A DNA stretch of 51,940 nt. It comes from Minisyncoccia bacterium. Its GTDB lineage: Bacteria; Patescibacteriota; Minisyncoccia; 2-02-FULL-40-12; IGHO2-01-FULL-4-A. The DNA lies in NCBI GenBank assembly GCA_041499075.1, contig JBGQJN010000002.1:1-51940 (forward strand). The letters are read 5' to 3'. Below, one piece after another: positions 978-36,200 of the stretch. The notes under the pieces are model-generated. The model did not search any database. It was not told where the DNA came from and was given only the letters and a program-made list of their open reading frames with translations. Position 1 is the first letter of the stretch. Each line of letters opens with the position of its first letter. A program made the position numbers and the translations under genes.

Positions 978-2963
978 ATGGACACCATTTCACTCTATAA
1001 AAACAGGATTGATGCGCTGATGGACATTCTCTTTGGTGCGGGAGTGTCTAATCCTCAGACGATCATCGAACAATTGAACTACCTGCTCTTTCTTCGCGCG
1101 CTTTCCATCAAAGACGATGAGGCAGAGCTGCTCGGAATCACTGATCAGAGCGAGAAGATCTTCACAGGAGATCTCGCAAAGTACCGATGGCAGAACCTAC
1201 TCGCACTCAATGCAGAAGACTTGTTCAAAACGCTAGAAACTTCTTTCGATCTCCTGCAAAAGAAATCGAAAAATCCCACGGTTAAGTTACTTTTCCGCAA
1301 TGCTCATATCAAGATCTTCGACAAGCCAACACTTCGTCGCGTTCTGCATGAGATAGAGACGTTCGCAAAGGAACTCGACGCGATCGCGCACGAAGGAAAC
1401 AAAGACGTATTCGGTGACATGTACGAGTATCTGCTTTCGAAGCTCTCCTCGGCTGGAACAAACGGGCAGTTCAGAACTCCACGTCACATTATCGACTTCA
1501 TGGTCAAAGTCGTTGATCCAAAGAAAAACGAAACGATACTCGATCCGGCATGCGGAACAGCGGGCTTCCTTGTCGCCGCATATCGTTATATTGCCGGTGA
1601 GTACACCAGTGACAAGCTAAAGAAAGCTGGCAGCCCTCGCGCGATGGATAAACTGTCGGCTGACGAGAAAAACTTCCTGTTCAACCACATGTTCACCGGC
1701 TTCGACAGCGATGAGGACATGATCAAGTTCGGAATGATGAATCTCCATCTCCACGGACTGACAAAGTCACGTCTAGCTCGACAAAACTCACTCACTGACA
1801 CGACGGGGATGAAAGACAAGTTTGATGTCATCCTAGCTAACCCGCCATTCAGTGGGAAGATCGACGAAGAAAGCGTCTCGGAAGATCTGCGTATGGGAAC
1901 AAAGGCAACTGAACTTCTTTTCCTGCGCTTCATGATGGACCACCTCTCACTCAAAGGTAAACTTGCTGTGATTGTCCCAGAGGGGGTTGTGTTCAATGCT
2001 TCGAAAGCCCACACTAAAATCAGGCAAATGCTAATTGAGAAAGGACTTTGGGCTGTTGTTTCATTACCCTCAGGTGTCTTTAATCCTTACGCTGGAGTTA
2101 AGACCAGCCTGCTTTTCCTCGATCAAGAATTAGCTAAAACAAAAGACGAGTTGCTGTTCGTAAAAATCGAGAATGACGGTTTTGACTTAGGTGCGCAACG
2201 ACGACCGTTGGGAAACAATGACCTTCCTTCAGCATTTGAGGCGTTGTCTCAATGGAAGGTTGGAAAGAAAGTCAAAAGTGAACTGACGACTTGGGCCAAC
2301 AAAGAAAAGATCTTAAATAATGTCGACTTAAGTCTTTCAGGTGATCGTTATCAGATGGCAGCGGAGCACAGTAATACAAAATGGCCATTGGTAGAGTTGG
2401 GTGAAGTCTGTGAGATCAATCCTAAAAAAAGTGAGCTCTCTCAACTTCCAAAAGACACACTCGTCTCCTTTGTGCCAATGGCAGATCTACCTGAAAATAA
2501 AAGTACTTTTGACGCAGTACAATCGAGGAAACTTGGTGAAGTAATAAAAGGCTATACGTACTTCAAAAACGATGATGTCCTTCTTGCTAAGGTTACGCCA
2601 TGCTTCGAGAACGGAAAGGCGGGGATCGCTAAAGACTTAAGCAACCAAGTCGGTTTCGGGTCGAGCGAGTTTATAGTTCTGCGATCGTCTCAAAAAATCC
2701 TCCCCGAGCTTATTTATTACTTCATTACGACAGATGAGTTCAGGAAGCTCGGCAAAAAACGTATGACGGGTACAGGAGGCTTAAAGCGCGTCCCTACAGA
2801 CTTTGTTAAGACATTCAAAGTTCCACTCCCTCCTTTGGCAGTCCAAAAACAGATTGTGGCTGAACTCAAAAAAGACGAGGAGCAAGTTAAGAAAAAGGAG
2901 GGTGAAATTGCTCATCTCAGAAAGGAGATGAAGGATAAAGTTGCACAGGTTTGGTCGGCGTAG
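978..2963 (+). CDS. Type I R-M methyltransferase fused to a single-TRD specificity module (HsdM-HsdS half fusion)
   Basis: N6-adenine MTase motifs LDPACGTAGFLV (motif I) and ILANPPFSGK (motif IV). From about residue 470 there is an HsdS-like target recognition domain (WPLVELGEVCEINPKK..VSFVPMADL..KVTPCFENGK..GSSEFIVLR). It ends in the conserved helical LPPLAVQKQIVAEL region. Confidence 0.8.
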   Translation: MDTISLYKNRIDALMDILFGAGVSNPQTIIEQLNYLLFLRALSIKDDEAELLGITDQSEKIFTGDLAKYRWQNLLALNAEDLFKTLETSFDLLQKKSKNPTVKLLFRNAHIKIFDKPTLRRVLHEIETFAKELDAIAHEGNKDVFGDMYEYLLSKLSSAGTNGQFRTPRHIIDFMVKVVDPKKNETILDPACGTAGFLVAAYRYIAGEYTSDKLKKAGSPRAMDKLSADEKNFLFNHMFTGFDSDEDMIKFGMMNLHLHGLTKSRLARQNSLTDTTGMKDKFDVILANPPFSGKIDEESVSEDLRMGTKATELLFLRFMMDHLSLKGKLAVIVPEGVVFNASKAHTKIRQMLIEKGLWAVVSLPSGVFNPYAGVKTSLLFLDQELAKTKDELLFVKIENDGFDLGAQRRPLGNNDLPSAFEALSQWKVGKKVKSELTTWANKEKILNNVDLSLSGDRYQMAAEHSNTKWPLVELGEVCEINPKKSELSQLPKDTLVSFVPMADLPENKSTFDAVQSRKLGEVIKGYTYFKNDDVLLAKVTPCFENGKAGIAKDLSNQVGFGSSEFIVLRSSQKILPELIYYFITTDEFRKLGKKRMTGTGGLKRVPTDFVKTFKVPLPPLAVQKQIVAELKKDEEQVKKKEGEIAHLRKEMKDKVAQVWSA

Positions 2964-3849: not shown

Positions 3850-4392
3850 AAGCGTGATCCGACTTATTAGCTGATAAACACAAAACCCGTCACGGGTCTC
3901 TGGCTTTCGCCAGACGTACAGGTTTCCCCATACGGCGGATCACGCAAACCCCATGACGGGTTCTCTATGCGCGATCCGACTTTCCAGCCATGCCACCGGC
4001 GAACCGATGGTTTAGGCTGTTGCCCTTGCGGGGCTATTCAACTGCTCTTACAGCGTAGCAAAAAAGTGCGAAAAAAGACACTTTTGACGGCACATGGCAC
4101 CAAAGTTATCCACTTGCAGGAAAAAACGGCGGCCGGGATAATATGAGTACGTCGTTCTTTGAAGTTCCAGACAATTCATAAACTGTTGGAGTCTTTCTTC
4201 GGGTAAAACCGTTGGAAGCAACCTCACCGACACAGCAATGTGTTCGTGAGCTACTGAGCTGTATTCAGTGTCAGTGGACCGTTATGCGTACTACGTTAGT
4301 GGCATCGCAGTAGAAATACTGCGTCGAACACACTGTAAAAAGTGTGTCAGGTTATGGAGCCCGAGAGTCAACACTCTCGAGTTGGGATTAGA

Positions 4393-4452
4393 GCCCAAGA
4401 AACTGTAGGTGATGAAAAATCGCCTGTAGTTTCTTGGGCTTCTTTGTTTCCC
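4393..4452 (+). terminator. Long hairpin plus T-rich tract (terminator-like, or a recombinase-associated palindrome)
   Basis: 17-bp stem 4393-4409/4423-4439 with two G-U pairs that only work on the + strand. The loop is 13 nt, followed by TTCTTTGTTT. Confidence 0.5.
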
Positions 4453-4657
4453 GGCGTATGCCCCGTGATCACACTCGAACAATTCAAAAAAGCCCTTGGG
4501 CCGTGCGCCGAAGGAAAAAGCGATGAACAACTCATTCGCCTAATGGATCAGCAAGCGAGACTTGCTGGCGCACTTTTCGATATGTGGAGAAAAAGCCTTA
4601 AAGAGGATTCGCAAAAATCGAGTGGATATAGTGCGAAGAACTCGGTAACATAAAGCT

Positions 4658-6355
4658 ATGAAGGATGCGACTGAATACTGCGTCATAGACTGTCGTGTAA
4701 GTGACCCTAGTCAATTGGAGGGAGGCAGTCTTGACGATCAAGAAATAATTGGGCGACTTGAAGCTCAGAAGTTAGGCCTTAAGATATCTAAGGTCTTTAA
4801 GAAGCCTCACTCGGCTACTACGTCCGAAAGAGATGATATTGAGGAGATATTAAGTTACATAAAAGGAGAGAGAGCGAAAGGGGTTAACCTCACGAAGTAC
4901 ATTGCTAAGAGCATCGATAGGATGACTCGCATGGGATATCCGGCCTTCTTGGACTTCAAAAATGAACTTGAGCATATTGGAGTCGCCATTGTCGATGCTC
5001 AGGGTATTATTCAACCAAAAAGAAACACGTTAGGACATTTCCCCGGAAACTTCGAGTACAAGTGGAGCGTGCACTCTCCAAGCGAGGCGGGAGAAATGCT
5101 CGAGGCATACAAAGGTAAAGCGGAAGTTAGGGACATTTTGACAAGGATGGTGGGAGCGGAAATCAAACTTGTTCAAGATGGATACGCGGTGCGGAGAGCT
5201 CCTGATGGTCTGAAAAACAAACGTGTCATGGTTGATGGAAAGAAGAAGGTTATTAGAGAGGCTAACCCAGAGCGCGTGGACTATTTCATAAAGATGTTCG
5301 AGCTCCTTGCTGATGGTGCGGATTACCCAGAAGTTGCCGACCGTCTGAACGCAGTCGGGTTTAAGACTCAAGTCTACGACCGATGGGACAGAAGCGACAA
5401 AGAAAACCCAAAAGTTGTCGGTAAAAAAGGCGGCAGTCCACTAACGGCCAAACAATTACAGCGATACATCTTGCAGACTGAGTACGCAGGCGTGAGCTAC
5501 GAGAAGTGGACAAAGCATCGGCCTGTAAAAATGCAGCAGTTCAACGGAATTGTGCCCATTGATACATTCAATAAAGCGAATCGAGGGAAAATCTATATCA
5601 GAATGAATAAGGATGAGACGGTCGAAGTTTTGCACAATTACTCACCGTGGGGCAGAGTTAAACGTCTCAAGGATAATCCGAAGTATCCATGGAAATGCAT
5701 CCTCTGTCCCTCCTGTCAGTCAGAGATGCTCGGCAGTTCTGCAAAAGGCAAGTACGATGGGTATCACTGCGGTGCTTGGAAGTCAGGAAAGCGGGCACAC
5801 AAGCATTTTCGAGTGACGAAAAAGGACTTTGAAGATAGCGTATGTGCTTACTTGGACAATCTGAAGTTCGAGGAAGGGTTCATGGCAGGTCTTGAATTGC
5901 ATCTTGTCGAGGAATATCGCAAGAAAGAAAAGGAGATCCTTATCGACTCCTCTCTGATCAGCAGGACTGTTTCTGACCTCAAGGCAGAACTTGCTCAAAA
6001 GATCCACGCATTCGGTCTAGCAGAGAGTCCAACAATGCGAAGGCACCTTGAAGCACAAGCAGAGGCATTGGAAACGCAAATTGAGAAGGCGGAGGGAGAG
6101 CGTGGTCGTGTTGAGCTCAACGAGAGAAGCATTCGAGGATTTCGACGCTACGTTGAATACGTAATGGAACATCCGGCAGAAATCCTGACAAAGGCTGACA
6201 ATTTGCAGGCTCGACGGGCACTTATGAGCCTGTTCTTCGAGGAAATGCCGACCTACCATGACATACTCAATGGAACTGCAAAACTAACAAGCCTATTCAG
6301 GCTTTCTGAAGCATTTAAGGTTGATAAAACCCAACTGGTGAGCCCACCGGAGTAA
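4658..6355 (+). CDS. Large serine recombinase (integrase)
   Basis: N-terminal resolvase-type catalytic motif (VIDCRVSDPSQ), a recombinase domain, a zinc ribbon (CILCPSCQSE...YHCG) and a C-terminal coiled-coil. At 565 aa the size fits the family. Confidence 0.85.
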   Translation: MKDATEYCVIDCRVSDPSQLEGGSLDDQEIIGRLEAQKLGLKISKVFKKPHSATTSERDDIEEILSYIKGERAKGVNLTKYIAKSIDRMTRMGYPAFLDFKNELEHIGVAIVDAQGIIQPKRNTLGHFPGNFEYKWSVHSPSEAGEMLEAYKGKAEVRDILTRMVGAEIKLVQDGYAVRRAPDGLKNKRVMVDGKKKVIREANPERVDYFIKMFELLADGADYPEVADRLNAVGFKTQVYDRWDRSDKENPKVVGKKGGSPLTAKQLQRYILQTEYAGVSYEKWTKHRPVKMQQFNGIVPIDTFNKANRGKIYIRMNKDETVEVLHNYSPWGRVKRLKDNPKYPWKCILCPSCQSEMLGSSAKGKYDGYHCGAWKSGKRAHKHFRVTKKDFEDSVCAYLDNLKFEEGFMAGLELHLVEEYRKKEKEILIDSSLISRTVSDLKAELAQKIHAFGLAESPTMRRHLEAQAEALETQIEKAEGERGRVELNERSIRGFRRYVEYVMEHPAEILTKADNLQARRALMSLFFEEMPTYHDILNGTAKLTSLFRLSEAFKVDKTQLVSPPE

Positions 6356-6368
6356 GCTCCTGCGGGCG

Positions 6369-6671
6369 TTAGTGATATAGAGTTGCCATCTGAAAGTAAT
6401 CCTCAACCCTAGCGCACACGTTTATTTCCCATAAGTCCACGACAGTCTTGGCAAGCCACGATAAAATTAGAAAAAAAGCTAGATCTAGTCTCTCTCCGAA
6501 GATTCTGTAACCGTAGGCCTTAAAAATCACAAATGATAAGCAACTTACCGCTAGAATTTGCACAAGCCGGTAAAGATCTTCACGCCGCATTGACGAAAGT
6601 ACTATTAGTAAAAGAAAAACTACTGTCAGTATGGAATCAATTTTGTTAAAAAGATACCATAAGTGTTCCAT
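6369..6671 (-). CDS. Small hydrophobic protein (100 aa), possibly altered at its C-terminus by the adjacent element
   Basis: Near-consensus promoter and a GGAGG RBS lie upstream. Several hydrophobic segments are present. Confidence 0.6.
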   Translation of the reverse strand: MEHLWYLFNKIDSILTVVFLLLIVLSSMRREDLYRLVQILAVSCLSFVIFKAYGYRIFGERLDLAFFLILSWLAKTVVDLWEINVCARVEDYFQMATLYH

Positions 6672-6745: not shown

Positions 6746-6809
6746 GGGTGGAGCGATACGTTCAGCCTGTTGGCCTCAGTATTTCCTCGCTTCCGCTCGT
6801 CAATTATTT
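6746..6809. repeat. Intergenic segment homologous to the rpmG/tRNA-Trp spacer (copy B)
   Basis: Shares GG.GGAGCGATAC.TTC.GCCTGT and TCAGTATTTCCTCGC.T.C.CTCGTCAA.TATTT with 13119-13195. Confidence 0.55.
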
Positions 6810-12317: not shown

Positions 12318-12755
12318 CTACGGGTTAATTCTGTTGATAAAATATTGCCTTTCTAATTTAGAAGTCAGGGTTGGGATCGGTTTTACGCTGTAACTCATTG
12401 TTAGTTTGTAGTGGTACCTTTTTCCAGAAGGCTTATATGATTCTATCCAATAGGCATCTTTGACGTCTCCCGAGTGAAAAATCATAATAGGAAGGCCCAT
12501 TTTACTTGGCTCAGGATGTTTATGCATCGGTCGGTCTTGCCAATAAATATCGCCGTTGAGCCATAGGCAACCGGGAGTCGCCGTTAACCATTGTGGTGCG
12601 ACAACAGCTCTGACTTTATCAAGTCTCAAAACACCGCTCTCTCCGTTGGTTAAAACTAATTTTCTGGAGGAAGGGTTAAAAACTAAAAGCCATAATAGTA
12701 ATGCACAAATGGCCGTAATAACTAAACAACCTAATATGAAAAGTATCATATTCAT
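12318..12755 (-). CDS. Hypothetical membrane-anchored protein (145 aa)
   Basis: N-terminal TM helix, an AGGAGA RBS, and its own promoter upstream. Confidence 0.6.
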   Translation of the reverse strand: MNMILFILGCLVITAICALLLWLLVFNPSSRKLVLTNGESGVLRLDKVRAVVAPQWLTATPGCLWLNGDIYWQDRPMHKHPEPSKMGLPIMIFHSGDVKDAYWIESYKPSGKRYHYKLTMSYSVKPIPTLTSKLERQYFINRINP

Positions 12756-12780
12756 CTCCTAGTTGTTAAGGAATAATACA

Positions 12781-12809
12781 ACAATAGCACCCGCAAGTGC
12801 TATTGTCAA
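12781..12809 (-). promoter_or_regulatory. Sigma70-type promoter (TTGACA-17 nt-TATTGT) with an upstream A-tract
   Basis: -35 at 12804-12809 and -10 at 12781-12786 (- strand) with a 17-nt spacer. It precedes the RBS and ATG of the 145-aa gene. Confidence 0.55.
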
Positions 12810-12853
12810 TTTTTTAGCGGGCCTGCCCGCCGTAACTCGCTTCGGCGAGCGAA

Positions 12854-12991
12854 GGCGGGAGTGCTAGGAATCTCACTCGCAAATCCTCAACCGGGTGGAC
12901 TCGGATTTGCTCTTGGAAACCAAGCGGTTTCCAACTTCCTCCTCGGGGAAACACCCAGTTTCCCCGACCCCTTCTCGTTCGAATCCTAGCA
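12854..12991. ncRNA. Candidate structured RNA or miniature element abutting tRNA-Trp (copy 1); strand unresolved
   Basis: No ORF. A closing helix encloses three hairpins. The termini copy the tRNA-Trp T-arm and 3' acceptor strand. It is homologous to 13754-13894, with complementarity kept where helix sequence differs. Confidence 0.45.
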
Positions 12992-13045
12992 AAATCTTCA
13001 CAGTTATCAAAATGAACTACCGAACAGCAGTTCATTTTGATATTG

Positions 13046-13116
13046 CGGGAGTGCTAGGATTCGAACCTAGATACCTGGTTTTGGAGACCAGAGTCTTGCC
13101 ATTGGACGACACTCCC
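13046..13116 (-). tRNA. tRNA-Trp (anticodon CCA)
   Basis: Cloverleaf read by hand: acceptor GGGAGTG/CACTCCC, anticodon arm CTGGT-CTCCAAA-ACCAG, T-arm CTAGG-TTCGAAT-CCTAG, discriminator G. CCA is not encoded. Confidence 0.9.
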
Positions 13117-13118
13117 AA

Positions 13119-13195
13119 GGCGGAGCGATACATTCGGCCTGTACATTCATGCTACTGCATTCAGTATTTCCTCGCCTACACTCGTCAACTATTTC
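13119..13195. repeat. rpmG/tRNA-Trp spacer, homologous to 6746-6809 (copy A)
   Basis: Same conserved blocks as copy B, with an extra internal segment. It starts at the rpmG stop codon and ends 2 nt before the tRNA-Trp 5' end. Confidence 0.55.
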
Positions 13196-13347
13196 TTGCT
13201 TTCCTTGTGCACTGTGTGTGCACGGCAATGTTTGCAGAATTTCTTCAACTCAATCAGACGCGTGACTAATTTCTTATTCTTAGTGGAAAAATAGTTAACA
13301 CGCTTGCATTTCTCGCACTTCAATTTTATTAAACTATCCTGACTCAT
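13189..13347 (-). CDS. rpmG: 50S ribosomal protein L33
   Basis: 52-aa ORF absent from the track (under 60 aa): MSQDSLIKLKCEKCKRVNYFSTKNKKLVTRLIELKKFCKHCRAHTVHKESKK. It has the CxxC...CxxC zinc ribbon typical of L33 and sits in a tRNA cluster. Confidence 0.85.
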   Translation of the reverse strand: MSQDSLIKLKCEKCKRVNYFSTKNKKLVTRLIELKKFCKHCRAHTVHKESKK

Positions 13348-13362
13348 ATTGTTTAGTTAGCT

Positions 13363-13437
13363 TGGAGCCGACGGTGAGAATTGAACTCACGACCTACTCC
13401 TTACCATGGAGTTGCTCTGCCGCTGAGCTACGTCGGC
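13363..13437 (-). tRNA. tRNA-Thr (anticodon GGU), CCA encoded
   Basis: Acceptor GCCGACG/CGTCGGC, anticodon arm ACTCC-ATGGTAA-GGAGT, T-arm GTGAG-TTCAATT-CTCAC, then TCCA. Confidence 0.9.
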
Positions 13438-13482
13438 ATGTTTAGCTAAAGATTTATTTTTTTAGTTTCTTATAGAATAAAA

Positions 13483-13737
13483 TTATAGTAAACTGCGCAA
13501 TCTTTTTTGGGCTAGTTCATATGCATGTTTGGTTAATTCTTCCATAGCTTCCACCTCACCCCAAAGCTCTCTGCTTAAATTTGATAAATCGGCTGGATCG
13601 TGATTTTGTCTGATATTTTCTAAAAGTTCAGAAATCGTTTTCTGTCTCATACCGATCAGTTCCATGGTAAATTCAAAATCTTGTTGTAATTCTTCTGAAC
13701 TTGGCTTTTCTTTTTCCTTCTTGTCTTCTAATGACAT
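13483..13737 (-). CDS. Hypothetical acidic helical protein (84 aa)
   Basis: ORF located between element copy 2 and tRNA-Thr. No recognisable domain and no clear RBS. Confidence 0.45.
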   Translation of the reverse strand: MSLEDKKEKEKPSSEELQQDFEFTMELIGMRQKTISELLENIRQNHDPADLSNLSRELWGEVEAMEELTKHAYELAQKRLRSLL

Positions 13738-13753
13738 GGAATTTTGTTATTGC

Positions 13754-13894
13754 TGTGAGGGCGGTAGGAATCTTGCGCGTGAGCGCTCAACCCAGTGGAC
13801 TCACGCTCACTTTTAAAAACCTTGCGGTTTTAATATTTCCACAACGGGAAAACTGTTGTTTTCCCGACACCCTTTCCTTGTGCAAATCCTACCA
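13754..13894. ncRNA. Candidate structured RNA or miniature element abutting tRNA-Tyr (copy 2); strand unresolved
   Basis: Same four-helix layout as copy 1, at the same spacing. The termini copy the tRNA-Tyr T-arm and 3' acceptor strand. Confidence 0.45.
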
Positions 13895-13949
13895 TATCTC
13901 TCAATAATTGAAAACTAAAAGCCCATAAATAGGCTCTAGTTTTCAAATG

Positions 13950-14033
13950 TGGGGGCGGTAGGATTTGCACCTACGTAGGCACAAGGCCAGCAGATTTACA
14001 GTCTGCCCTCGTTGACTGCTTGAGTACACCCCC
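13950..14033 (-). tRNA. tRNA-Tyr (anticodon GUA), class II with long variable arm
   Basis: Acceptor GGGGGTG/CGCCCCC, anticodon arm GCAGA-CTGTAAA-TCTGC, long variable arm, T-arm GTAGG-TGCAAAT-CCTAC, discriminator A. CCA is not encoded. Confidence 0.9.
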
Positions 14034-14056
14034 GATATGACTTAATGTTTGTCAAT

Positions 14057-14356
14057 CTATTCTACGATTAAATCTTCTGGTAAAAATTGATGCTTCCTCG
14101 AATTCTCTGGTATATCGTCGTCACCTTCATAAGTGACGGATATGGAACCACCCAATTCAACTTTTTCTACGGTTGCTCTATAACTAGCAAGAAAACTAGG
14201 ATCATCATTCTCAATCGGTAAACCAACCTCTTTTTCTTTAAAATCTAGTAGTTTTTGCCGACCGATTTCGCTTAATCTAACGCGAGAACCAACCTTAATA
14301 GTGCGTCCATTTTTATCTTTAAATTCGGTATCGGGTTATTCGCGATGGCTAATCAT
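14057..14356 (-). pseudogene. Uncalled ORF with an in-frame TAA at codon 7 (possible pseudogene or mis-started gene)
   Basis: ATG at 14356 and TAA at 14336-14338. A further 92 protein-like codons follow in the same frame (PDTEFKDKNGRTIKVGSRVRLSEIGRQKLLDF...PEDLIVE) to the TAG at 14057-14059. There is no in-frame ATG/GTG/TTG start near the 5' end. Confidence 0.35.
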
Positions 14357-14395
14357 TTCATAATAGAGTTACTTTCTCGCTTACGTTTGCCGGTG

Positions 14396-14467
14396 AGCCA
14401 GCGGTCGGGATTGAACCGACGACCTACTGTTTACAAAACAGTTGCTCTGCCACTGAGCTACGCTGGC
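14396..14467 (-). tRNA. tRNA-Thr (anticodon UGU)
   Basis: Acceptor GCCAGCG/CGCTGGC, anticodon arm ACTGT-TTTGTAA-ACAGT, T-arm GTCGG-TTCAATC-CCGAC, discriminator T. CCA is not encoded. Confidence 0.9.
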
Positions 14468-23038: not shown

Positions 23039-26000
23039 TTAGAGATCTATTTTCTCATCAACCCAGCCATTCTTTACCGAGAGTGTTCTTTCAGCTGAAC
23101 GTGGCTGTGTCATGCCGGAAGGAGTATCGACTCTCAAGCGATACAACCCTTTTTGAGCCAGCAGGAAATATCTGCCAAGCTCATCGGTGACGGCAAATCC
23201 TGCCCTGTTGCCGCTTGTGTCAAGCAAAGTAATCAAAGAGAATGGTACGGCGTTGCCCGTGTCTTTATCGATAATGACGCCATAGGGTTTCTTCCTTAAG
23301 CCGGCCAGATGGAATATCACCATTAGCAGAACGGCTATCATGATCGAGAGGTTAAGTAAGTTGGGAATCGCCAAATAAATCAATGGAGCGGTAACCAAAG
23401 ATATCCAAAATGCAATATCCAAAGTTCTGACGACAAAGTTGTTCAAGGATATCGACGGCGCTTTGGAAGGTTTGGGTTCTTGTCTGGTTAAGGGATCAAT
23501 TGGAATATCCAGATTGATGAAATCTTTATCCTCCACTTCTACCAAGCCGCCATTGTAGACTCGCTGGTATAAGAGCGTGTCAGGCGCCGAAGTCACGATA
23601 TGCGAGGGGAAAGCATAGTTTTCTTTTTGTACTTCAAGCTGGACGTTCAACTTGCCTTCGCGGAACAAGGCCGGATCAACCAAGAAGCCGTAGCGCCCGT
23701 CAATGTCCGTACTCTTGGTTTCAAGGGTTGTGCCGGTTTGATCAAAGAGTTCGATCGAAACGAACGGAATCGGCCGCTTGGTCATTGAATCATAGACCGT
23801 GCCCCAGGGCTTGTTTTTCTTTTTGACGCCGATTAATTGGAAGAATGAAGCCATTGAGAATAGAAGAATATCCAGAATACTGGCGCCGAGATGTATCAAG
23901 TTAAGCAGGACGTCGACAGAGGTAATGATTACTACGGAAGTTGTCACGATGGAAACTGTTTCGGCTGTCGTGGTTTTGCCGGGGATGTTGTTAATGACTG
24001 TGTTTATCGGCGGGCCGATCGGAGTCAGCGGAGTTGGCGAAGCAACTACCGATGGTGTCGGCGTTAGAGTATTTAATGTTCCGCCGCCACCCGGCTGTTG
24101 GCTTGGAGAAATTGTCGGTGTCGCGGATACTGTCGGAGTTGGCGTCGCTTGAGGTGTAATTGTAGATCCACCACCGCCACCTCCACCGGGGTTCTGAGTA
24201 GGAATCTGTGTCGGATTCACGCTGGTACTTGGAGTTGCTGTTGGTGTGGCTGTCGGACTTGGTGTTGTCGTAGGCGTTGGAGACGGAGATCCCGAGACAA
24301 TAAGCGAGGGAGTTGGTGTCGGAGTAGGCGGATTATTAGACCCGGGTGTCTGACTGGTTGTAGGTATTGGTGTGGCAGTAGGCGTTGGCGTTGATGTTGG
24401 TGCGATTATCGGAGTCGGCGTAGGCGTAGAAACTAGAGCCGCGACATTATAAGCAATGCAGTAAATATCTGCCGGTGGGTTATTGCTCAGTCTGATGTAT
24501 TCTAAGTTGTCGCCATTGAGTGCGTCATTATAACAGCGCAGAACGGCAAAGCCATATTGAGATTGCAGATCTTCGCTGACCCATAACTGACCGCCGCTTC
24601 TTAGTAGACTTTGTTGAGCTGAATTAAGGTCCGACATTTGGATCACAAATTCACCATCTATATTAGTTGGTCCAGCAGTAGAAACATTATGTACTTGGGC
24701 TTGATCGGTTGAAAGTTTGAAATTCCAATCAGCTTGTGGAATACAAGTTTGAGGTAATTCATGCAAGCCAACAGGTTTGAACTGATATGGATTCGGGAAG
24801 TGTGGCGAACTAACGGAGTAATTGGAAAACTGGCTGAAATGGCCGCTACTGTCATCTAGGTTATCAGCGGCGGCATTACCGGTGACTACAGACCAAGAAG
24901 GGCATAGTCTTTTTAGAAAATGGAAGTTAGTATTTGGCGGTATATCAATGTTTATAGGGGTTTGAGTAGGTAGTGGAAATATGAAATCGCGCGGTGATCC
25001 TGAAATTTGGTAGCTGATACCAGTGGTTGTGTCTACGGCAAAGACATAAAGAGTATGGATTACGCCATCTTTGAATTGCTCAGGTATTTGAAATGTGAAT
25101 CCGTGATCTCTGGGATAGCCGGTTGTGCTATTGACGTCTGGTCTTGGCAGGCCGGCTATTACCGAACCTTGGAAATTAGAACTGGCTAGCCCGTCTATGT
25201 AAAATTTAACTTGAATACTCTGTAGTGGAGTATCGGCATCAAGCGCCCAGCCGATAACAGCGCCATCGCCTGATGGCCCGTCATGTATAGTATCAAGATG
25301 ACCGATCGGTGGTACTTGTACTGGCGTGCACGAATTTAAAACCAATAAATTATTTATAAAATCCCTGGTTGCTTGATCAAGATTGCCGTCAGCGGGAGTA
25401 TTACCTATCTGGGCGCTATATACTAACTGAAAACTTTTAAGAGCCGCCTGTGTCCGTGGTCCAAAATATGTCGTTTCATTTCCCGGTGAACCATAACCGC
25501 TTGCGGCCAGTATAAAATTATTATCGTTCAAGAACTTTTGGAGAATTTTAACGCCCGGCCCTTGGTCATGTCTTTGGAGGTTTGTAGTGATTGCTTCTGT
25601 CGGCGGGATAAGACATTGTTGAATCGGCGGTGGCGTAATGCTCGGTGTCGGAGACGGAGACACACTGGGAGTCGGTGTCGGGTTGGGTGTTGGTGAAGGA
25701 GAGAAGGAACTACCGCCGCCACCCGGATTAGGGGTTGGAGTCGGTGTTGGTGTTGGTGTGGCAACAATATTACCGCAACTGGTATTATCAACAAAACTCC
25801 AGCCGACGTTGTGGCCGAAATCTATCACATGATAACCTTGCAAAGTTAAAGCCGTGGGATTATTGGAATCACTTACATCTAAATAGCAAAGAATTATAGA
25901 ACTTGCGGCACTGGGATCAATATTCCATCGTGTCGGCGAAGAATCGCTTGGCAAGGCCAGTTGATTGCCGCCGGGGGCACCTTCAAGGTCTAGGCCATGC

Positions 26001-28162
26001 AGAATTGTTTCAGTTTCGGTGTTTTGAATGGTGAGTGTATCACCGGCCGCAACGGTTTTAGTGAGATTGTAGAAAATGTTATCTGCACCGGTATTGGTGC
26101 CCAAGAACTGATTGGTGCCAATCAAGACCACACTGCCGGTGTTGGCGTGGAATCCGGCGCTGCCATAAAAACTGCCGGTTATGTTTAGGCTGCCGGATCT
26201 GGCGGTAAAAATGTCTGTGTCTGCATCCAAGCCAAAGTCAGCACCAAAATTACCGCTAGGGTCAATGAGTAAATTCATAATGTCCGGAGCGAGCATGCTA
26301 CTAACAGAGCCCGTGCCAAAATATGCTCCGTAAACATTGAATGTGCTGGAGGTGCTGGCGTCAAAAGTCCCACCGTTGTCTATTGTTCCGGAAGTCCAAG
26401 TCGCCCCTTTCATAATCAGATCTGCACCGGCTCTGATTATTGCCAGGCCATAGCCCATATCAACGTTGCCGTTGATTGTCAGAGTACCGTTCCAAATATC
26501 CAGGCGATTGGAAAGGAAATAATTCGCGTCATCAGTCCAAGTAGGAGCGCTAATGCTATCCACAGTCAGTGGGCATGTACCAGCAACTTCGTGCAAACTA
26601 CTTTGCCCTGGCTCAACCGTGAATGATCCGGCATCGAGACTAGGCACCGTACCGGCTGTTTTATTTATTACTATTGAGCTGGCATGTGTTTGATCGCGAT
26701 AATTTCCCCTGTCAACGCCAACATAAATTGAATTGAAACTATCGCTACCATTGCAGTTAAAAATACTCGGACCAACACCGCCAAAGATGAGGTTTTTGCC
26801 GGTGAGATCGAAAGTACCTATATCGTAATAAGAGACATTATCTACCTCCACGGTCGTTCCCCCGTAAGTAATGGTGCCTTCATTGGCGAAATCGCCAGTC
26901 GGATTTAGGTTAGTAGCTCCATCAGAAATTCCACTGCTGCTGTTAAAAAAAGGATTTACTACTTGCTCAATGGGAGGCCCGGCTACAACAAAAGTCGTGG
27001 TATTGGGTAAATCTAAGGTTGACGGTCTATAAACATCCAAGCCGGTTGAATTCCAACTCGTGCCATTAAATATCAGACTCGAAGGCGAAGAAGGCAGATA
27101 CGAAGAGAATAGCTGGACTGGGTTAAAAATCGCATCATTATTGGGCGGGGCGGCTCCAACTTCTACTGCGCCGGAATTCCAGCTGGCGGCATTGGAAGTC
27201 AGGGAAGAACTCACGGCAGAGCCAGCGACCACGCGAATCCCGCCAAGCGTATTGATGTTGGCGGTCAGATCACATCCGGCAACACCATTCTGACTTTGCA
27301 ATATAAAACCGCTGGCGTCGCTGGTTTGCGCGATGTTAACAGTAGTGATTCCGGTTAAACTGTTAAAGTTGCCATCGCACTGCAACATTATTGCCGCATC
27401 ACCAATAAAGTTAAGAGTTTTACCGGTGCCGTTAATTGTTGTAGTAGAACCGTTTACACCTACATCCAGGCCGGAAGTTACATTCCAAATAGTTGGTGGA
27501 GTGAAAGTGGCATTAAGTAGTTCATAACCGACGTGCTGACCAATTTCTCCACCGTAAGTAACATCAGCAAAGCCAACAGCAAGAGTGCCACTACCTGCGG
27601 TAAAGGTTACACCGCCGTCAAGAATAAAATGTTCACCCACGGTTAGATTACCGTTATTAGGATTAAAAGTACCGCCATCAAACTCAAAGTTAAAATTCAC
27701 GGTTGTAGTACCGCTCGTAGCGACAAAAGTACCGCCGTCTATAAAAAGTGTACCTGTTAGATTTATATTGCCATTACCGCCAACGAAATGGCCATCATAT
27801 TGATCCATATCACCAGTACCAGTAATAATATCTATAGTCACTCCGCTAGCTTGGGTAATGGTGCCCGTATAGCCAATCTGTATTATCAATCTTGTAATCG
27901 AAATAGAACTATCGATCGTGGCGTTTTTTGTAGAAGTACCGTCAAAGACAACATCATCAGCAGAAGTCGGTGCTACTCCTCCAGCCCAGTTAGCATCACA
28001 GCTCCAGTCGTTGGCATGGCCTACTCCACAAGTGCCATTTGTTCCCGCTCCGTTCCAAGTGATGGTATCAGCATGAACATAATGTACAGCAAAAAAACAA
28101 AAAACAAAGACAGAAAAAAACAACAAAATTATGCCTTTATATTTCGGAGGTTTTAGAAACAT
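23039..28162 (-). CDS. Giant surface protein (1707 aa): beta-helix/adhesin-like N-terminus, PT linkers, PG-binding domain, beta-sandwich domains, C-terminal multi-TM region with two CarboxypepD_reg-like domains
   Basis: Uninterrupted ORF with an N-terminal signal or anchor. Autotransporter-passenger-like G/T/N-rich repeats. PG_binding_1-like GPGVKILQKFL...FGPRTQAALKSFQ. Hydrophobic helices alternate with GTVYDSMTKRPIPFVSIELFD / GVIIDKDTGNAVPFSLITLLD modules. Confidence 0.85.
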   Translation of the reverse strand: MFLKPPKYKGIILLFFSVFVFCFFAVHYVHADTITWNGAGTNGTCGVGHANDWSCDANWAGGVAPTSADDVVFDGTSTKNATIDSSISITRLIIQIGYTGTITQASGVTIDIITGTGDMDQYDGHFVGGNGNINLTGTLFIDGGTFVATSGTTTVNFNFEFDGGTFNPNNGNLTVGEHFILDGGVTFTAGSGTLAVGFADVTYGGEIGQHVGYELLNATFTPPTIWNVTSGLDVGVNGSTTTINGTGKTLNFIGDAAIMLQCDGNFNSLTGITTVNIAQTSDASGFILQSQNGVAGCDLTANINTLGGIRVVAGSAVSSSLTSNAASWNSGAVEVGAAPPNNDAIFNPVQLFSSYLPSSPSSLIFNGTSWNSTGLDVYRPSTLDLPNTTTFVVAGPPIEQVVNPFFNSSSGISDGATNLNPTGDFANEGTITYGGTTVEVDNVSYYDIGTFDLTGKNLIFGGVGPSIFNCNGSDSFNSIYVGVDRGNYRDQTHASSIVINKTAGTVPSLDAGSFTVEPGQSSLHEVAGTCPLTVDSISAPTWTDDANYFLSNRLDIWNGTLTINGNVDMGYGLAIIRAGADLIMKGATWTSGTIDNGGTFDASTSSTFNVYGAYFGTGSVSSMLAPDIMNLLIDPSGNFGADFGLDADTDIFTARSGSLNITGSFYGSAGFHANTGSVVLIGTNQFLGTNTGADNIFYNLTKTVAAGDTLTIQNTETETILHGLDLEGAPGGNQLALPSDSSPTRWNIDPSAASSIILCYLDVSDSNNPTALTLQGYHVIDFGHNVGWSFVDNTSCGNIVATPTPTPTPTPNPGGGGSSFSPSPTPNPTPTPSVSPSPTPSITPPPIQQCLIPPTEAITTNLQRHDQGPGVKILQKFLNDNNFILAASGYGSPGNETTYFGPRTQAALKSFQLVYSAQIGNTPADGNLDQATRDFINNLLVLNSCTPVQVPPIGHLDTIHDGPSGDGAVIGWALDADTPLQSIQVKFYIDGLASSNFQGSVIAGLPRPDVNSTTGYPRDHGFTFQIPEQFKDGVIHTLYVFAVDTTTGISYQISGSPRDFIFPLPTQTPINIDIPPNTNFHFLKRLCPSWSVVTGNAAADNLDDSSGHFSQFSNYSVSSPHFPNPYQFKPVGLHELPQTCIPQADWNFKLSTDQAQVHNVSTAGPTNIDGEFVIQMSDLNSAQQSLLRSGGQLWVSEDLQSQYGFAVLRCYNDALNGDNLEYIRLSNNPPADIYCIAYNVAALVSTPTPTPIIAPTSTPTPTATPIPTTSQTPGSNNPPTPTPTPSLIVSGSPSPTPTTTPSPTATPTATPSTSVNPTQIPTQNPGGGGGGGSTITPQATPTPTVSATPTISPSQQPGGGGTLNTLTPTPSVVASPTPLTPIGPPINTVINNIPGKTTTAETVSIVTTSVVIITSVDVLLNLIHLGASILDILLFSMASFFQLIGVKKKNKPWGTVYDSMTKRPIPFVSIELFDQTGTTLETKSTDIDGRYGFLVDPALFREGKLNVQLEVQKENYAFPSHIVTSAPDTLLYQRVYNGGLVEVEDKDFINLDIPIDPLTRQEPKPSKAPSISLNNFVVRTLDIAFWISLVTAPLIYLAIPNLLNLSIMIAVLLMVIFHLAGLRKKPYGVIIDKDTGNAVPFSLITLLDTSGNRAGFAVTDELGRYFLLAQKGLYRLRVDTPSGMTQPRSAERTLSVKNGWVDEKIDL

Positions 28163-33281: not shown

Positions 33282-36200
33282 CTAATTCCACAAAACCTGA
33301 GCGGCGGCGGCGCCTGTGGCTTGATAGTAATCAACTCTGATGGAGTGATTGCCGGCTGAAAGCTGTCTGGAAAAGTTATAAGTATTTTTCTTTTGGTCAA
33401 ACCACTTATTCAAAACCAGAACGCCATCTATCCAAATTCTCATGCCGTCATCAGTCGTGGCAGTAAACGTATGCCTGCCGGAGGCACTGAAGCTTAAGGT
33501 GTTGGTCCAGCGCACGGCGTAAAAAGTAGATCTTAAATTCGGACTTGGTGACGTGCCCGTCCAGTCAAAATTGATTGCTTGATCGGGGCGAGAGAATATT
33601 AAGGAACCGAATTTCCTGGTGCTAGTCAGCCTATAATACTTACCGGTAAATGGACCGTTGACAACTGAACTTGGAACCGGCGTCTGGCTAATGCCCGGGG
33701 TGACTGAACTGGAACCAAAATTGAATACTACTGGTGTAAGATTAAGTAAGAAAGTGGGAGTATTATTACTATCATCGGCATAAATGTACAAAGTGTGATT
33801 TTTGCCATCTTGGTATTGAGCCGGTATAATCCATGTAAAACCATGGTTACCAAAAGTATTTAGAAGTTGATTAACGTCAGTTCTCAGATTTGCAGTGAGT
33901 ATGGTGACTACAGCTCCTCCGTGACCGGCAGTACTATCAATATAGAAGCTCACCGGAATGGATGTAGCCGGGTTATTGTAATCAGCTGCCCAGCCGCCAA
34001 CCGTTCCATCGGGATTAACATAGTTAAGATAGCCGGTGAAATTAGACGGGACTGACGGTGTTGGAGTAACCGTGGCAGTCGGTACGCACACGCCATTTAC
34101 ACAGCTGTCACCCACGATACAGGCAAACGGACAAACAATAGGCGGAGTAGGTATTGGCGTAGACATTGGAGTTGGGGCCAGAACACTGCCTAAAGTAAAT
34201 GACTGCGGCGTTAACTTTACCAAGAATACTGGGACGTTACTGCTATCAGCATAAATATACATGGTGTGACTGTGGCCGTCTTGGTACTGGACTGGCATGT
34301 ACCAGTCAAAGCCGTGGTTGCCGGTGGCATTCGTAAATAGATCGTTTACATCTTGGCGGAAAGCGTTGGTGGCTATAGTCGCAACCGGACTACCACCGCT
34401 ACCGGGGGTGTTATCAATGTAGAAGCTTACCGGTATAGGAGTACTTGGGTTATTGGCATCAATAGCCCAGCCGATTACTTCTCCCTTTTGACTAATGACA
34501 TCCAGCCAGCCGTCAAATTGAGAATTAGGATTTGTAATGGGAGTAGGAGTCGTGGCAGGGGTAGGTATAGGTATGGGGGTGGGAGTTTTGCTCAAGGTTG
34601 GAATCGGGGTATTACTGGGGATGGGTGTCGGAGTAGGGGTATTTAATATTGTTGTAAATGAAACCAATGAGCTTGTAACCAGGTTATTTGAAGCATTTTT
34701 TGATTTTATGTTGAATGGATAAGTTATTGCCGGCGATAAGTTAAAGATATTGATAATATGGTTGGTAGAAAGTGAAGTAACTATTGGCGTAGAACAACCT
34801 GAGGATGGACACGGATTCAAGAAGACGACCTGTCCATCAGTCGGCATGTTGGTGGCCCAATTAATGTCAGCTGAAAATTGACCGATGTTGGTAACTGAGA
34901 TATTTGAAATAACGGGTAATGCTGTTGGAGTTGGTATCACGCTCGGAATCGGCGTAGGTATTGGTGTCGGCGTTGATGTAACAGATGTAACCAAGGCCAT
35001 GACTTGATTTGCCACCGAGCCGAGGTTATTGGTAACCGTCAGAGTATAGATCGTAGTTTGAGTGGGGTTAACATTAATATTGCCGGTGGCACCACTTATG
35101 TTGCCAACAGTTGGACTGATGCTTAAAGCAGTAGCATTAGAAGAAACCCAGGACAGATTAACTAAATTACTGCTACCTACAACATTCGGTGCAGCATTAA
35201 GACTGGTGATTATCGGCGGTGGGGAGACGCCAGGACTTGGCATTGGTATTGGCGCAGGTGTAGGTGTCGGAATGGCTGAGGTGCCGGTAAAAAATTCTCC
35301 CATATCCAAAGCACTAGCCGCTGCTCCGGGAAAACCGCTCAAACCCAAGGTTTGCATAGAGAGTCGCAGGGTTGCAGCGTGACTGACGAAGTTAGTGCCG
35401 GATTGGTAGCCGTGTTTTACTTGGTTGCCTACGGCAATCCAAGGAACTTTATTGCCTCCGCCTCCAGCATCTTCGTCAAAAGTAATTATCAGCAGTCCGT
35501 TCTGCATAAATGAGGAGTTTTTAACCAGAGGATCGATGTTGGTCTTAAGCCAGTTGTCGGCGGTCTGGGTTGAACAATCGTGAGCATCGTTACATAGGTT
35601 CGGGACAATGAAAGAATAAGCAGGCAAATTGTTATTGGCTAGGTCGGTAGAAAATTGAGTAAAAGGTACTAGATTTTGTTCTTGCGCGGTACTGTTCTGC
35701 ACGTCAGTAAGATACGGGAACGGGTTATGCCTGACGGCGTAGTTGCCGCTGTCTCCGCCAATATAACCGGCCGACGGCAGATCTTCGGCATAAGATTTCC
35801 AGGTCTTGCCGGCGGCTATCAGATGCCGGACAACATTATCAACCGAGACCGGAAAAGTTGATGGATCTTGATTGTCGTCATTGGTCAGAATCTGGCCGGT
35901 TGCAAGCATTAAATAGTTGCCGATGGAAGGATGCGTATTGGCGTGATAGTTGGTGGCCAGGGCATAAGTGTTCGCTAAACTATTGAAATAAGGCATCGAG
36001 GAATTGCCAATGACACTGGAATAATCGGTATTTTCCTCCAAGACGATGACGACGTGACTGAGCTGGGGAACGCTACCGGAAGGAATAGATGTCGGTGCGG
36101 GAGTAGGTACAGGGATGACGCTGGCAGATGAACTGACGACGACTAGTAAGGATTTACTTATTGTACCAAGGCCGTTAGTTATCGTTAGTACATAAGTTGT

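Follow-up and report, generated by a model that had tools for sequence, protein, structure and literature searches.

Both the elements inserted by tyrosine integrases and the distal repeats of Escherichia coli tyrT (rtT RNA) duplicate a tRNA 3' end downstream of a tRNA that stays intact, each rtT unit carrying ~19 nt of the tRNA-Tyr 3' end. The bridge or seek RNAs of IS110/IS1111 and the omega RNAs of IS200/IS605 are element-encoded, structured non-coding RNAs (ncRNAs) of ~100-200 nt with short target-matching stretches; omega RNAs have a ~16-nt 3' guide read from flanking DNA, bridge RNAs have two segments that pair with opposite target strands, and neither IS110 nor IS200/IS605 elements make a 16-bp duplication. 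Short interspersed elements (SINEs), which are short and lack open reading frames (ORFs), and site-specific non-long-terminal-repeat (non-LTR) elements are characterized by an enzyme acting in trans, a structured 3' region, 5'-truncated copies, duplications of ~7-20 bp and a relation to tRNA; SINE-type elements are eukaryotic, and we know of no bacterial counterpart. In the attP site of CTX phage and the attC sites of integrons, an inverted target-like copy pairs with a direct copy and the integrated layout is direct-inverted-direct, with XerCD or IntI acting at fixed targets (dif, attI). Casposases make 14-15-bp duplications (± 1-2 bp) at tRNA 3' ends, need the T-loop-encoding region upstream and accept varied ends, including single-stranded DNA and RNA (PMC5137440, PMC6977970). 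Here we analyze a 51,940-nt stretch of DNA from a Minisyncoccia bacterium (GenBank assembly GCA_041499075.1, contig JBGQJN010000002.1, positions 1 to 51,940; hereafter the window), in which two copies of a structured insert of ~175 bp follow the 3' ends of tRNA-Trp and tRNA-Tyr. With a probability of roughly 0.5, we read both copies as ORF-less miniature mobile elements that target tRNA genes in bacteria of the candidate phyla radiation (CPR; Patescibacteria) and carry a functional RNA.

The tRNA genes of the window all lie on the minus strand, which we refer to as the tRNA sense (Table 1). An earlier note on this DNA, made from the sequence alone, had placed a non-coding multi-hairpin element beside tRNA-Trp at 12854-12991, and both the element and its coordinates are borne out here. 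As that note had it, the left end at 12855-12872 (GCGGGAGTGCTAGGAATC) is identical to tRNA-Trp 13045-13062 at 17 of 18 positions, with 0 chance matches in 100 shuffles, and the right end at 12977-12991 (GTTCGAATCCTAGCA) is an exact inverted copy of 13052-13066. The minimum-energy fold of these 138 nt reaches -59.8 kcal/mol (z = -3.9), and none of 200 shuffles was as stable. Both window copies share one order in the tRNA sense: the tRNA, a long hairpin (H), a short linker, a segment antisense to the tRNA (anti), three hairpins (A, B and C), a junction sequence and a copy of the tRNA end (the tail). The tRNA ends at its discriminator base followed by CA, and hairpin H begins 3-5 nt further on with a perfect stem of 13-15 bp. 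In copy 1, the first direct repeat runs from tRNA-Trp position 60 to the discriminator plus one base and forms the functional tRNA 3' end, with hairpin H starting 3 nt past the tRNA and looking like a terminator (A-tract, stem, T-tract); hairpin H of copy 2 was likewise flagged as terminator-like. The two H sequences are unrelated, while folds of all copies show that the shape is conserved among them. Between hairpin C and the tail lies GAGUGAGAUUCC in copy 1 and GCGCAAGAUUCC in the tRNA-Tyr copy, and the tail in both is a copy of the last ~16 nt of the tRNA.

For comparison with relatives (loci are designated by L numbers), we fetched their tRNA-Thr/Tyr/Thr/rpmG/Trp regions through L33 and the neighbouring TPR protein; by its L33 homologues, the window belongs to a Yanofskybacteria-like genome. 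The copy 1 insert is absent from the orthologous tRNA-Trp sites of L045, L047, L048, L050, L054 and L057, and a covariance model of the element found no match in L045-L048, L050, L054 or L057. CC-TTCGCCCACCGAAGCGGGCTACGGCGGG comes after tRNA-Trp in L045 and L048; in the window, this trailer (~80% identical over ~45 nt) follows the tail instead of the functional tRNA-Trp end, and the sequence past the functional end is unrelated to it. Copy 1 is therefore an insertion of ~175 bp into the 3' end of tRNA-Trp, and the alignment indicates that the tail is the displaced or duplicated native 3' end of the gene, continuous with its native trailer. The insertion at a tRNA 3' end, the ~16-bp duplication that accompanies it, and its presence in some and absence from other close relatives are to us firm observations. 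They do not agree with the proposal in the earlier note that a T-arm had been opened in its loop, as the tRNA is intact upstream (60 bits) and the empty sites point to an insertion of ~175 bp plus a duplication of ~16 bp. The UUCG hairpin at 12826-12859, which that note listed with the element, is not part of it either: relatives with empty sites conserve it as the native trailer of tRNA-Trp. The tRNA-Tyr site is occupied in five of eight cases, being filled in the window, L032, L046, L048 and L054 and empty in L047, L050 and L057, where a conserved small ORF (..QQVEFFKHLKSSP..) follows instead.

The native trailer has features of its own. It is conserved between the window (12813-12859, minus strand), L045 (~622-680) and L048 (~4241-4300), and a hairpin capped by UUCG/GAA separates the end of the acceptor strand, CCCGCC, from a downstream GGCGGG with which it can pair, this GGCGGG overlapping a second hairpin (GCGGG..CCCGC). 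As modeled, the alternative hairpins may form a processing or termination switch tied to tRNA folding.

The second copy that the earlier note implied lies at 13754-13895 on the minus strand, directly after tRNA-Tyr (nhmmer E = 1.8e-11). Copies 1 (12854-12992) and 2 score 148.6 and 134.4 bits with the covariance model, and with filters off the window contains no further copy, the next best match scoring at most 11 bits. Their anti segments and tails differ exactly as tRNA-Trp differs from tRNA-Tyr, including the unusual T-loop TGCAAAT of the latter. As the two copies have the same hairpin C loop (GAGUCCACNNGGUUGAG), it served as a search anchor. The resulting pattern (GAGTCCACNNGGTTGAG, 6-20 nt, ATTCC) matched 2 of 185,579 species representatives, both true matches: one in a Yanofskybacteria metagenome-assembled genome (MAG), after tRNA-Ile(UAU) and directly before tRNA-Val, and one in a Saccharibacteria MAG, after tRNA-Gln. 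JGI metagenomes yielded four more copies on unassigned contigs, after tRNA-Ser, tRNA-Tyr and tRNA-Gln and, in one case, without a tRNA within 245 nt. The family thus numbers eight copies, behind Trp, Tyr (two), Ile, Gln (two) and Ser tRNAs plus one orphan, and the six beyond the window exclude the local duplication artefact that the earlier note had considered. Among the five tRNA-adjacent copies elsewhere, four have ends that match the local tRNA, L030 and L034 by the tail alone. A viral origin was set aside: all 19 matches of the loop motif in IMG/VR are chance hits inside coding sequence, and blastn against GenBank phages and PLSDB plasmids returned no match to the element.

The orphan copy, at L033 154-294, has hairpin H, an anti segment, the core and a tRNA-like tail (TCTCGGCGCTCCGACA), with no tRNA in the 245 nt upstream and only a vestige there (AGAATCGTCGACA); either its tRNA has decayed or the element is able to sit away from a tRNA.

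Relationships among the copies are mosaic. Hairpins B and C of copy 1 have the same sequences as their counterparts in L033 and L030, but not as those of copy 2 in the same genome; the core of the L032 copy, which follows tRNA-Tyr, resembles that of copy 1, and the core of copy 2 is the most divergent. Copy 2 and the L032 copy occupy the same tRNA site, yet their H hairpins cannot be aligned. L030 and L034 are without the 5' parts (hairpin H and the anti segment) and look 5'-truncated, although these are two shortened copies only and decay would look alike. Compared at the sequence level, the mosaic core similarities, the unalignable H hairpins at a shared site, the near-identical repeats and the truncated look of two copies are signs of mobility over vertical descent.

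The direct repeats are of nearly constant length. In the seven family copies, repeat lengths are 15, 16, 16, 16, 16, 16 and 15, three of them counted allowing one internal mismatch or deletion, and the register runs from T60 to the discriminator plus 1-2 nt. Related Yanofskybacteria carry three further ORF-less inserts at the tRNA-Tyr 3' end (L046, L054 and L048; Table 1), found without using the loop motif, and each combines a hairpin and a partial antisense T-loop segment with a structured, GC-rich core unrelated to that of the window copies; L046 and L054 align weakly and may be one family. That several core types share one architecture is a plain observation, and the presence of at least three of them at one tRNA-Tyr site in related Yanofskybacteria implies that the phenomenon is probably much larger than eight copies. 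All ten inserts are 133-184 bp long with a 15-17-bp direct repeat (mode 16) and no cargo, and repeat length is kept while the register slides by up to 4 nt. Such constancy with a sliding register fits staggered cuts at a fixed spacing, which a homology block would not obviously produce; on the four registers available, it is suggestive of a target-site duplication. No such repeat was present at any of 43 phage tRNAs of the chance-hit loci. The second repeat differs from the first by 0-1 changes in 16 nt, while hairpin H cannot be aligned between copies, and the bases following the repeat differ, GCA on the tRNA side and GCC on the native side.

The anti segment is the reverse complement of tRNA G53-N67 (T-loop, 3' strand of the T-stem and two acceptor-strand nucleotides) and sits ~45-55 nt inside the element. 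Its exact complementarity to the local tRNA extends over 15 nt in copy 1, 14 nt in copy 2, 14 nt in L032 and 15 nt in L021, and, in L054 with its different core, over 11 nt; none of 2000 shuffles reached any of these matches. The segment matches 13 nt with one mismatch and one G·U pair in L020 and is degenerate in L030 and L034. It matches the T-loop of the tRNA better than the 3' side of the element itself and pairs with the T-loop and T-stem over 13-15 bp. In the predicted co-transcript of tRNA-Trp and the element, the minimum-energy fold (z = -8.1) pairs the anti segment with the T-loop and T-stem, and the 5' acceptor strand of the tRNA with the distal tail. The target-complementary 15-mer itself is among the things that we observe. 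We also considered that the segment might remain from a long palindrome copied by fold-back; a simple fold-back origin is ruled out, as the acceptor strand has left no decayed inverse in the linker beside it (summed alignment score, P = 0.41). In sequence, the anti segment is a 14-15-mer with sharp boundaries that resembles a guide.

The interior of the element has the marks of a conserved RNA. Applied to an alignment of the eight family sequences (alignment A2), RNAalifold gave hairpins A, B and C and a closing helix that is not in the earlier note, GGGGUC/GAUUCC, whose strands lie directly 5' of hairpin A and directly 5' of the tail and which is kept in all eight copies. Pairing is found in 97.6% of cells and 10 pairs have changed on both sides, values that none of 500 shuffles reach, and the covariation signal collapses when the pairing partners are slid. 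We regard this covarying non-coding core as well founded. Strong purifying selection acts on it, whereas the unconstrained parts of the element, the hairpin A loop and hairpin H, have changed to saturation. In the closing helix, 16 cells are G·U and none is A·C, and each of its three one-sided changes preserves a pair (G·U to A-U, G-C to G·U, C-G to U·G). Every one of the eight copies has U at the position of tRNA A59, which lets the closing helix form, and conserved structure spans the junction of insert and repeat because this helix takes the first three bases of the tail. Taken together, the model is of a ~105-nt core (K) that would fold as a four-way-junction RNA with a closing helix reaching 3 nt into the flanking repeat. 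The structure drawn in the earlier note fares well in part: the minimum-energy fold reproduces its 8-bp closing helix P1 as well as P2, P3 and P4 (our hairpins C, B and A), and these three hairpins pass the covariation check on the larger set of eight sequences, whereas P1, which joins the anti segment to the tail, is formed in about half of the copies only, being good in copies 1 and 2, L021 and L020 (as an 8-bp helix in the first three), broken in L032 and absent in L030 and L034.

Three observations favor the minus strand over the plus strand on which that structure had been read. Every tRNA-adjacent copy is co-oriented with its tRNA, the G·U and A·C cells are divided as above, and folding in the tRNA sense is more stable in eight of eight copies (mean -58.4 vs -52.7 kcal/mol), in agreement with the consensus energies (-41.8 vs -37.4). 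We therefore take the tRNA sense, the minus strand, as most likely the structured one. No conserved ORF passes through the element, loop lengths among copies differ by non-multiples of three, and we rejected a protein-coding element as no frame is open or in register across copies. Two further ideas were dropped: a candidate promoter of the element's own (TTGATA-16-TAGGAT), which overlaps the copy 1 anti segment, lacks conservation among the other copies and is not relied on, and mimicry of tRNA by the core (a permuted T-arm in the loop of hairpin C, RNase P-like motifs, a cloverleaf analogy) is a by-eye resemblance with nothing testable in its support.

Table 1. Coordinates of the two window copies, their host genes, inserts with other cores and genes immediately downstream of inserts
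Feature	Position	Strand	Basis or remark
tRNA-Trp(CCA), intact host gene of copy 1	window 13045-13116	-	ARAGORN; Rfam tRNA model, 60.1 bits
Direct repeat 1, copy 1: TCCTAGCACTCCCGC	window 13045-13059	-	repeated exactly over 15 nt; starts lie 190 nt apart
Inserted DNA of copy 1, 175 bp, between both direct repeats	window 12870-13044	-	measured
Hairpin H, copy 1: perfect 13-bp stem ATCAAAATGAACT/AGTTCATTTTGAT	window 13006-13041	-	sequence, folds
Anti segment, copy 1: TGCTAGGATTCGAAC	window 12977-12991	-	exact reverse complement of tRNA-Trp G53-A67
Conserved core K, copy 1	window 12867-12971	-	RNAalifold, pair counts, loop motif, covariance model
Closing helix of core K, copy 1: GGGGUC / GAUUCC	window 12966-12971 / 12867-12872	-	
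Hairpin A, copy 1	window ~12943-12966	-	
Hairpin B, copy 1	window 12913-12934	-	
Hairpin C, copy 1	window 12879-12910	-	
Invariant loop of hairpin C, copy 1: GAGUCCACNNGGUUGAG	window 12886-12902	-	
Direct repeat 2 (tail), copy 1	window 12855-12869	-	alignment with empty sites of L045, L048
Native tRNA-Trp trailer including UUCG-capped hairpin, outside insertion	window 12813-12854	-	orthologous sequence right after tRNA-Trp in L045, L048
tRNA-Thr	window 13363-13437	-	ARAGORN
tRNA-Tyr(GTA), host gene of copy 2	window 13949-14033	-	ARAGORN, Rfam
tRNA-Thr	window 14395-14467	-	ARAGORN
Inserted DNA of copy 2, 178 bp	window 13770-13947	-	
Hairpin H, copy 2	window ~13903-13943	-	
Anti segment, copy 2: TGGTAGGATTTGCAC	window 13880-13894	-	
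Invariant loop of core K, copy 2	window 13786-13802	-	
Direct repeat 2, copy 2: TCCTACCGCCCTCACA	window 13754-13769	-	1 mismatch vs tRNA-Tyr 3' end 13948-13963
Insert with other core, L046	L046 2360-2492		repeat 17, register ~58-74
Insert with other core, L054	L054 4489-4630		repeat 16, register ~61-76
Insert with other core, L048	L048 3334-3517		repeat 16, register ~62-77
Downstream gene, 84-aa ORF of no assigned family	window 13483-13737	-	
Downstream gene, 87-aa GIY-YIG nuclease	L048 3597-3860		
Downstream gene, 201-aa protein with weak HNH-phage matches	L046 2580-3185		
Downstream gene, BglII-type restriction endonuclease	L030 700-1374		

Database searches gave no name for the element. The impression in the earlier note that it resembles no tmRNA, RNase P, signal recognition particle (SRP), 6S, T-box or small-ribozyme RNA agrees with an Rfam scan at gathering scores, which had no hit; Rfam 15 run over 12700-14100 at E <= 10 gave no credible hit, only low-scoring microRNA noise on the hairpins, with Y RNA, rtT (RF00391), group I/II introns and omega/HEARO RNAs also unmatched. 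ARAGORN found no tmRNA in the window, and the homologous loci of the element had no match in Rfam either. Full-text literature searches returned no description of such elements, and the class appears undescribed in the sources that we searched. As for partner enzymes, no DEDD recombinase or TnpB/IscB gene lies near any copy. The sole recombinase in the window is a large serine recombinase 6.5 kb from the element. We rejected serine recombinases as partners: those near the window copies and L020 (within 1.3-6.5 kb) share 26% identity over 107 aa and are barely related, and serine integrases make no 16-bp repeats. Spread driven by a homing endonuclease was rejected as well, the GIY-YIG gene (L048) and the weak HNH-like match (L046) being inconsistent across copies and both outside the repeats.

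If the copies are mobile elements with a functional RNA, the version that we prefer, and put forward tentatively, is RNA-templated, target-primed insertion as in SINEs or R2. Under this scheme, the element would be transcribed with, or just after, its tRNA, and the RNA, comprising the anti segment, the core and the 16-nt tRNA-like tail, would be the active form. The core would be the scaffold on which an enzyme encoded in trans assembles, the anti segment and tail would choose the site by pairing with opposite strands of the T-arm/acceptor region of the tRNA gene, and staggered breaks ~16 bp apart would give the duplication, with the tail annealing to the nicked bottom strand in the target-primed case. 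Hairpin H resembles a tRNA terminator, and owing to the repeat the tRNA stays intact. More doubtful is the idea of a protein-less, self-targeting mobile RNA gene, little more than a guide RNA, with a 15-nt arm for one strand of the T-arm of the tRNA gene, a 16-nt tRNA-like tail for the other strand and the conserved scaffold in between. Such an RNA would recruit an enzyme encoded elsewhere, either a reverse transcriptase or an integrase, and regenerate the tRNA while inserting precisely at its 3' end. We prefer an RNA-centered mechanism because the conserved structure is RNA-like and spans the junction of insert and repeat, because a transposase would find nothing conserved to bind at the left end, because the tail is as long as the duplication, and because the shortened copies are those without 5' parts.

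Several points weigh against mobility of this kind. A Pfam and PHROG scan of ~40 window proteins and 10 neighbours of other copies revealed no reverse transcriptase, Cas1 or TnpB, and no IS110-type or tyrosine recombinase. The empty sites could also have come from deletion between the direct repeats, and the constant repeat length, on four registers, could be a coincidence (roughly p = 0.02-0.05 by our estimate). The sample is small, with six or seven independent sequences among the eight available, and contigs carry one or two copies only, with no sign of a transposition burst. The model does not account for how the 15-nt anti segment comes to match a new tRNA after a move. Within the structure, no two-sided change occurs in the closing helix and P1 is broken in about half of the copies; the transcript of the element, its strand and its ends are all things that we infer.

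The main rival places the mechanism in DNA. A miniature integrative element, in the form of a ~190-nt circle bearing a copy of the tRNA 3' end and a terminator, would insert by site-specific recombination, the anti segment and T-stem copy acting as a folded single-strand or cruciform attachment site at which a tyrosine recombinase supplied in trans exchanges strands near position 60/61. Such a process accounts for the direct-inverted-direct layout as well as the RNA mechanism does, as that layout with a structured loop is the expected trace of single-strand hairpin integration of the kind known from CTX phage and integrons, and an element-borne 3' end predicts the GCA and GCC that follow the two repeats. 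A terminator-like hairpin right after the restored tRNA would suit a well-adapted integrative element, and the ~55 nt on the left (hairpin H) without conserved sequence make end-recognizing transposases unlikely. We nevertheless judge it unlikely, since a homology block should vary in length, whereas the repeat stays at 15-17 bp as its register slides by up to 4 nt; tandem G·U pairs, on which the closing helix depends, do poorly in DNA; it is the T-loop of the tRNA, and not the element's own 3' side, that the anti segment matches; and the acceptor strand of the element would have to match the host exactly, while the window has CACTCCC and relatives have CGTCCCC and CGCCCCC. The window and the surroundings of the other copies also contain no integrase that was found. 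Insertion by an integrase classically leaves a direct repeat of the tRNA 3' end, and the copies might be scars of conventional tRNA-integrating prophages or islands, attL and attR having been joined by internal deletion; downstream of several copies there are indeed genes of an island-like kind, among them a GIY-YIG nuclease, a BglII-type restriction enzyme and small ORFs of no assigned family. That all ten inserts are minis of 133-184 bp without cargo, that the same core with the same spacing and compensatory changes occurs in Saccharibacteria and Yanofskybacteria, and that the native trailer comes immediately after the repeat in copy 1 make this very improbable.

Distinctly unlikely, in our judgment, is an ncRNA gene that serves the host, resides on certain tRNA genes and is inherited vertically with frequent loss by deletion between the repeats, whether as a processed 3'-trailer RNA or as a cis switch competing for the T-arm and acceptor strands to control tRNA maturation. 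It would fit a core that is strongly conserved beside a saturated hairpin A loop and hairpin H, a position always directly behind and co-oriented with the tRNA, and the predicted co-transcript fold, in which tRNA strands pair with the tail and anti segment (z = -8.1), and precise deletion between 16-bp repeats would regenerate the empty sites. The patchy distribution (2 of 185,579 species representatives, and absence from six close relatives) is harder to accommodate, as are the similarities of the core, which follow neither host nor tRNA identity, and the L033 copy without a tRNA. At least five tRNA species carry the element, each of which would need its own duplication and inverted copy, and at least two unrelated core types (L048; L046/L054) have the same layout at the same tRNA-Tyr site. 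There remains a non-autonomous DNA transposon akin to a miniature inverted-repeat transposable element (MITE), moved by a Cas1-type casposase or another transposase that recognizes its site from the T-loop region and cuts ~15-16 bp apart, with the structure incidental or formed in single-stranded DNA. The duplications of casposases, 14-15 bp at tRNA 3' ends with the T-loop region needed (PMC5137440, PMC6977970), come close to the 15-17 bp seen here, but a casposon duplication overlaps the tRNA by 4-5 bp only and the present one lies almost wholly inside it. There are no terminal inverted repeats and no termini conserved between copies or families; in a test for DDE-type MITEs, no inverted termini were shared by copies, and the sole inverted repeat was that of the anti segment with the tRNA-like 3' side. 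With no Cas1 or PolB gene in the window or beside any copy, and with the conserved covarying core and anti segment left unaccounted for, such a transposon is improbable.

The window and the loci of relatives have other features of note. A LOOT RNA (RF03000, 91 bits) at window 3899-4018 (minus strand) lies between a type I restriction-modification methylase/specificity fusion (978-2963, plus strand) and the large serine recombinase (4658-6355, plus strand), a 565-aa protein with Resolvase and zinc-ribbon domains that PHROG labels 'integrase', and this region is probably an integrated mobile element. In L020 (2270-3940, minus strand), a 556-aa large serine recombinase, only distantly related to that of the window, abuts or overlaps the 3' end of tRNA-Leu (2352-2439); it lies 1.3 kb from the element copy, precedes a 580-aa ORF and probably marks a further integrated element. 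The genes immediately downstream of several inserts are small, variable and island-like (Table 1). A 53-nt repeat, 77% identical, occurs at window 6757-6809 and 13142-13194, reading TTGACGAG..GCGAGGAAATACTGA.. and then ..GTATCGCTCC on the minus strand; one unit is between rpmG and tRNA-Trp and the other upstream of a 100-aa ORF (6369-6671), and from its sequence it looks like a shared promoter and leader module. Two giant ORFs on the minus strand, 23039-28162 (1707 aa) and 33282-37991 (1569 aa), contain degenerate GT-rich 18/36-nt repeats (families D1-D4) and probably encode repetitive surface proteins.

Among the relatives, L054 has a tandem duplication of the tRNA-Thr(UGU)-tRNA-Tyr pair (4298-4847) with the insert and its repeat between the units, each tRNA-Thr being bracketed by a ~20-nt inverted repeat (TTAGCCC.GTTACACTTGCCGG / GCGGCAAGTGTAAC.GGGCTAA) like a processing stem. 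In L050, the anticodon loop of a tRNA-Thr(GGU) at ~4605-4859 is split by an insertion of ~181 nt (~4641-4821) containing AAGATACAGTCTAATCC, which resembles a group I intron core, with no Rfam intron match at gathering score; ARAGORN does not call this tRNA. A decayed T-arm and acceptor fragment of tRNA-Thr lies downstream of the intact tRNA in L050 (4232-4275), and a decayed variable-arm and T-arm fragment of tRNA-Ser in the same position in L030 (~610-680). To judge by sequence, such decayed 3'-half fragments suggest that insertion or excision at the 3' ends of tRNAs has happened repeatedly in these genomes.

If our reading is right, CPR bacteria host an undescribed class of mobile elements of ~175 bp that encode no protein and leave essential tRNA genes undamaged. 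With RNA as template or guide, these would be either a SINE-like retroelement or another RNA-guided insertion system, either of which would be new for bacteria. An RNA-guided system would interest genome engineers, as its targeting segment seems to have been re-matched to five or more tRNAs. In the more doubtful case of a self-targeting RNA gene, base pairing would make target choice programmable, and the system would link RNA-guided recombination, casposon- and CRISPR-style integration beside the T-loop, and SINE-like retrotransposition in bacteria. For those annotating MAGs, the inserts add tRNA 3'-end fragments and long hairpins that can confuse the calling of tRNAs, terminators and attachment sites.

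Set against the systems introduced above, the element shares the direct repeat of a tRNA 3' end with tRNA-integrating islands, without an integrase and without cargo between the repeats, and its antisense T-arm segment and covarying core have a counterpart in neither rtT nor integrase elements. As in attP and attC, an inverted target copy pairs with a direct copy (P1), although the element uses several tRNA targets, has an RNA-like structure with G·U pairs and keeps a constant repeat length. Its covarying core, 14-15-nt anti segment complementary to the local tRNA and 16-nt tail equal to the tRNA 3' end are reminiscent of bridge and omega RNAs; unlike those systems, it has no adjacent recombinase or TnpB, no Rfam similarity and a ~16-bp duplication, and its target-matching segments overlap (positions 53-67 and 60-75), whereas the segments of a bridge RNA flank the core dinucleotide. 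A duplication and a conserved 3' core recall SINEs, as do two copies without 5' parts, which decay could have produced as well as truncation, but its tRNA-like parts come from the target, in place of an ancestral tRNA head as in SINEs, and no reverse transcriptase is among the proteins scanned. Casposons are 8-20 kb long, with terminal inverted repeats, Cas1 and PolB and a 4-5-bp tRNA overlap, none of which the ~175-bp element has, and unlike them it has its duplication inside the tRNA, a conserved structured RNA and a target-complementary segment. Casposase-type integration is nonetheless the closest documented precedent for a fixed ~15-bp duplication beside the T-loop: both occur at a tRNA 3' end with a near-fixed duplication, the repeat of the element begins right after the T-loop, and in its fixed ~16 bp at that place the duplication parallels both casposon and CRISPR integration.

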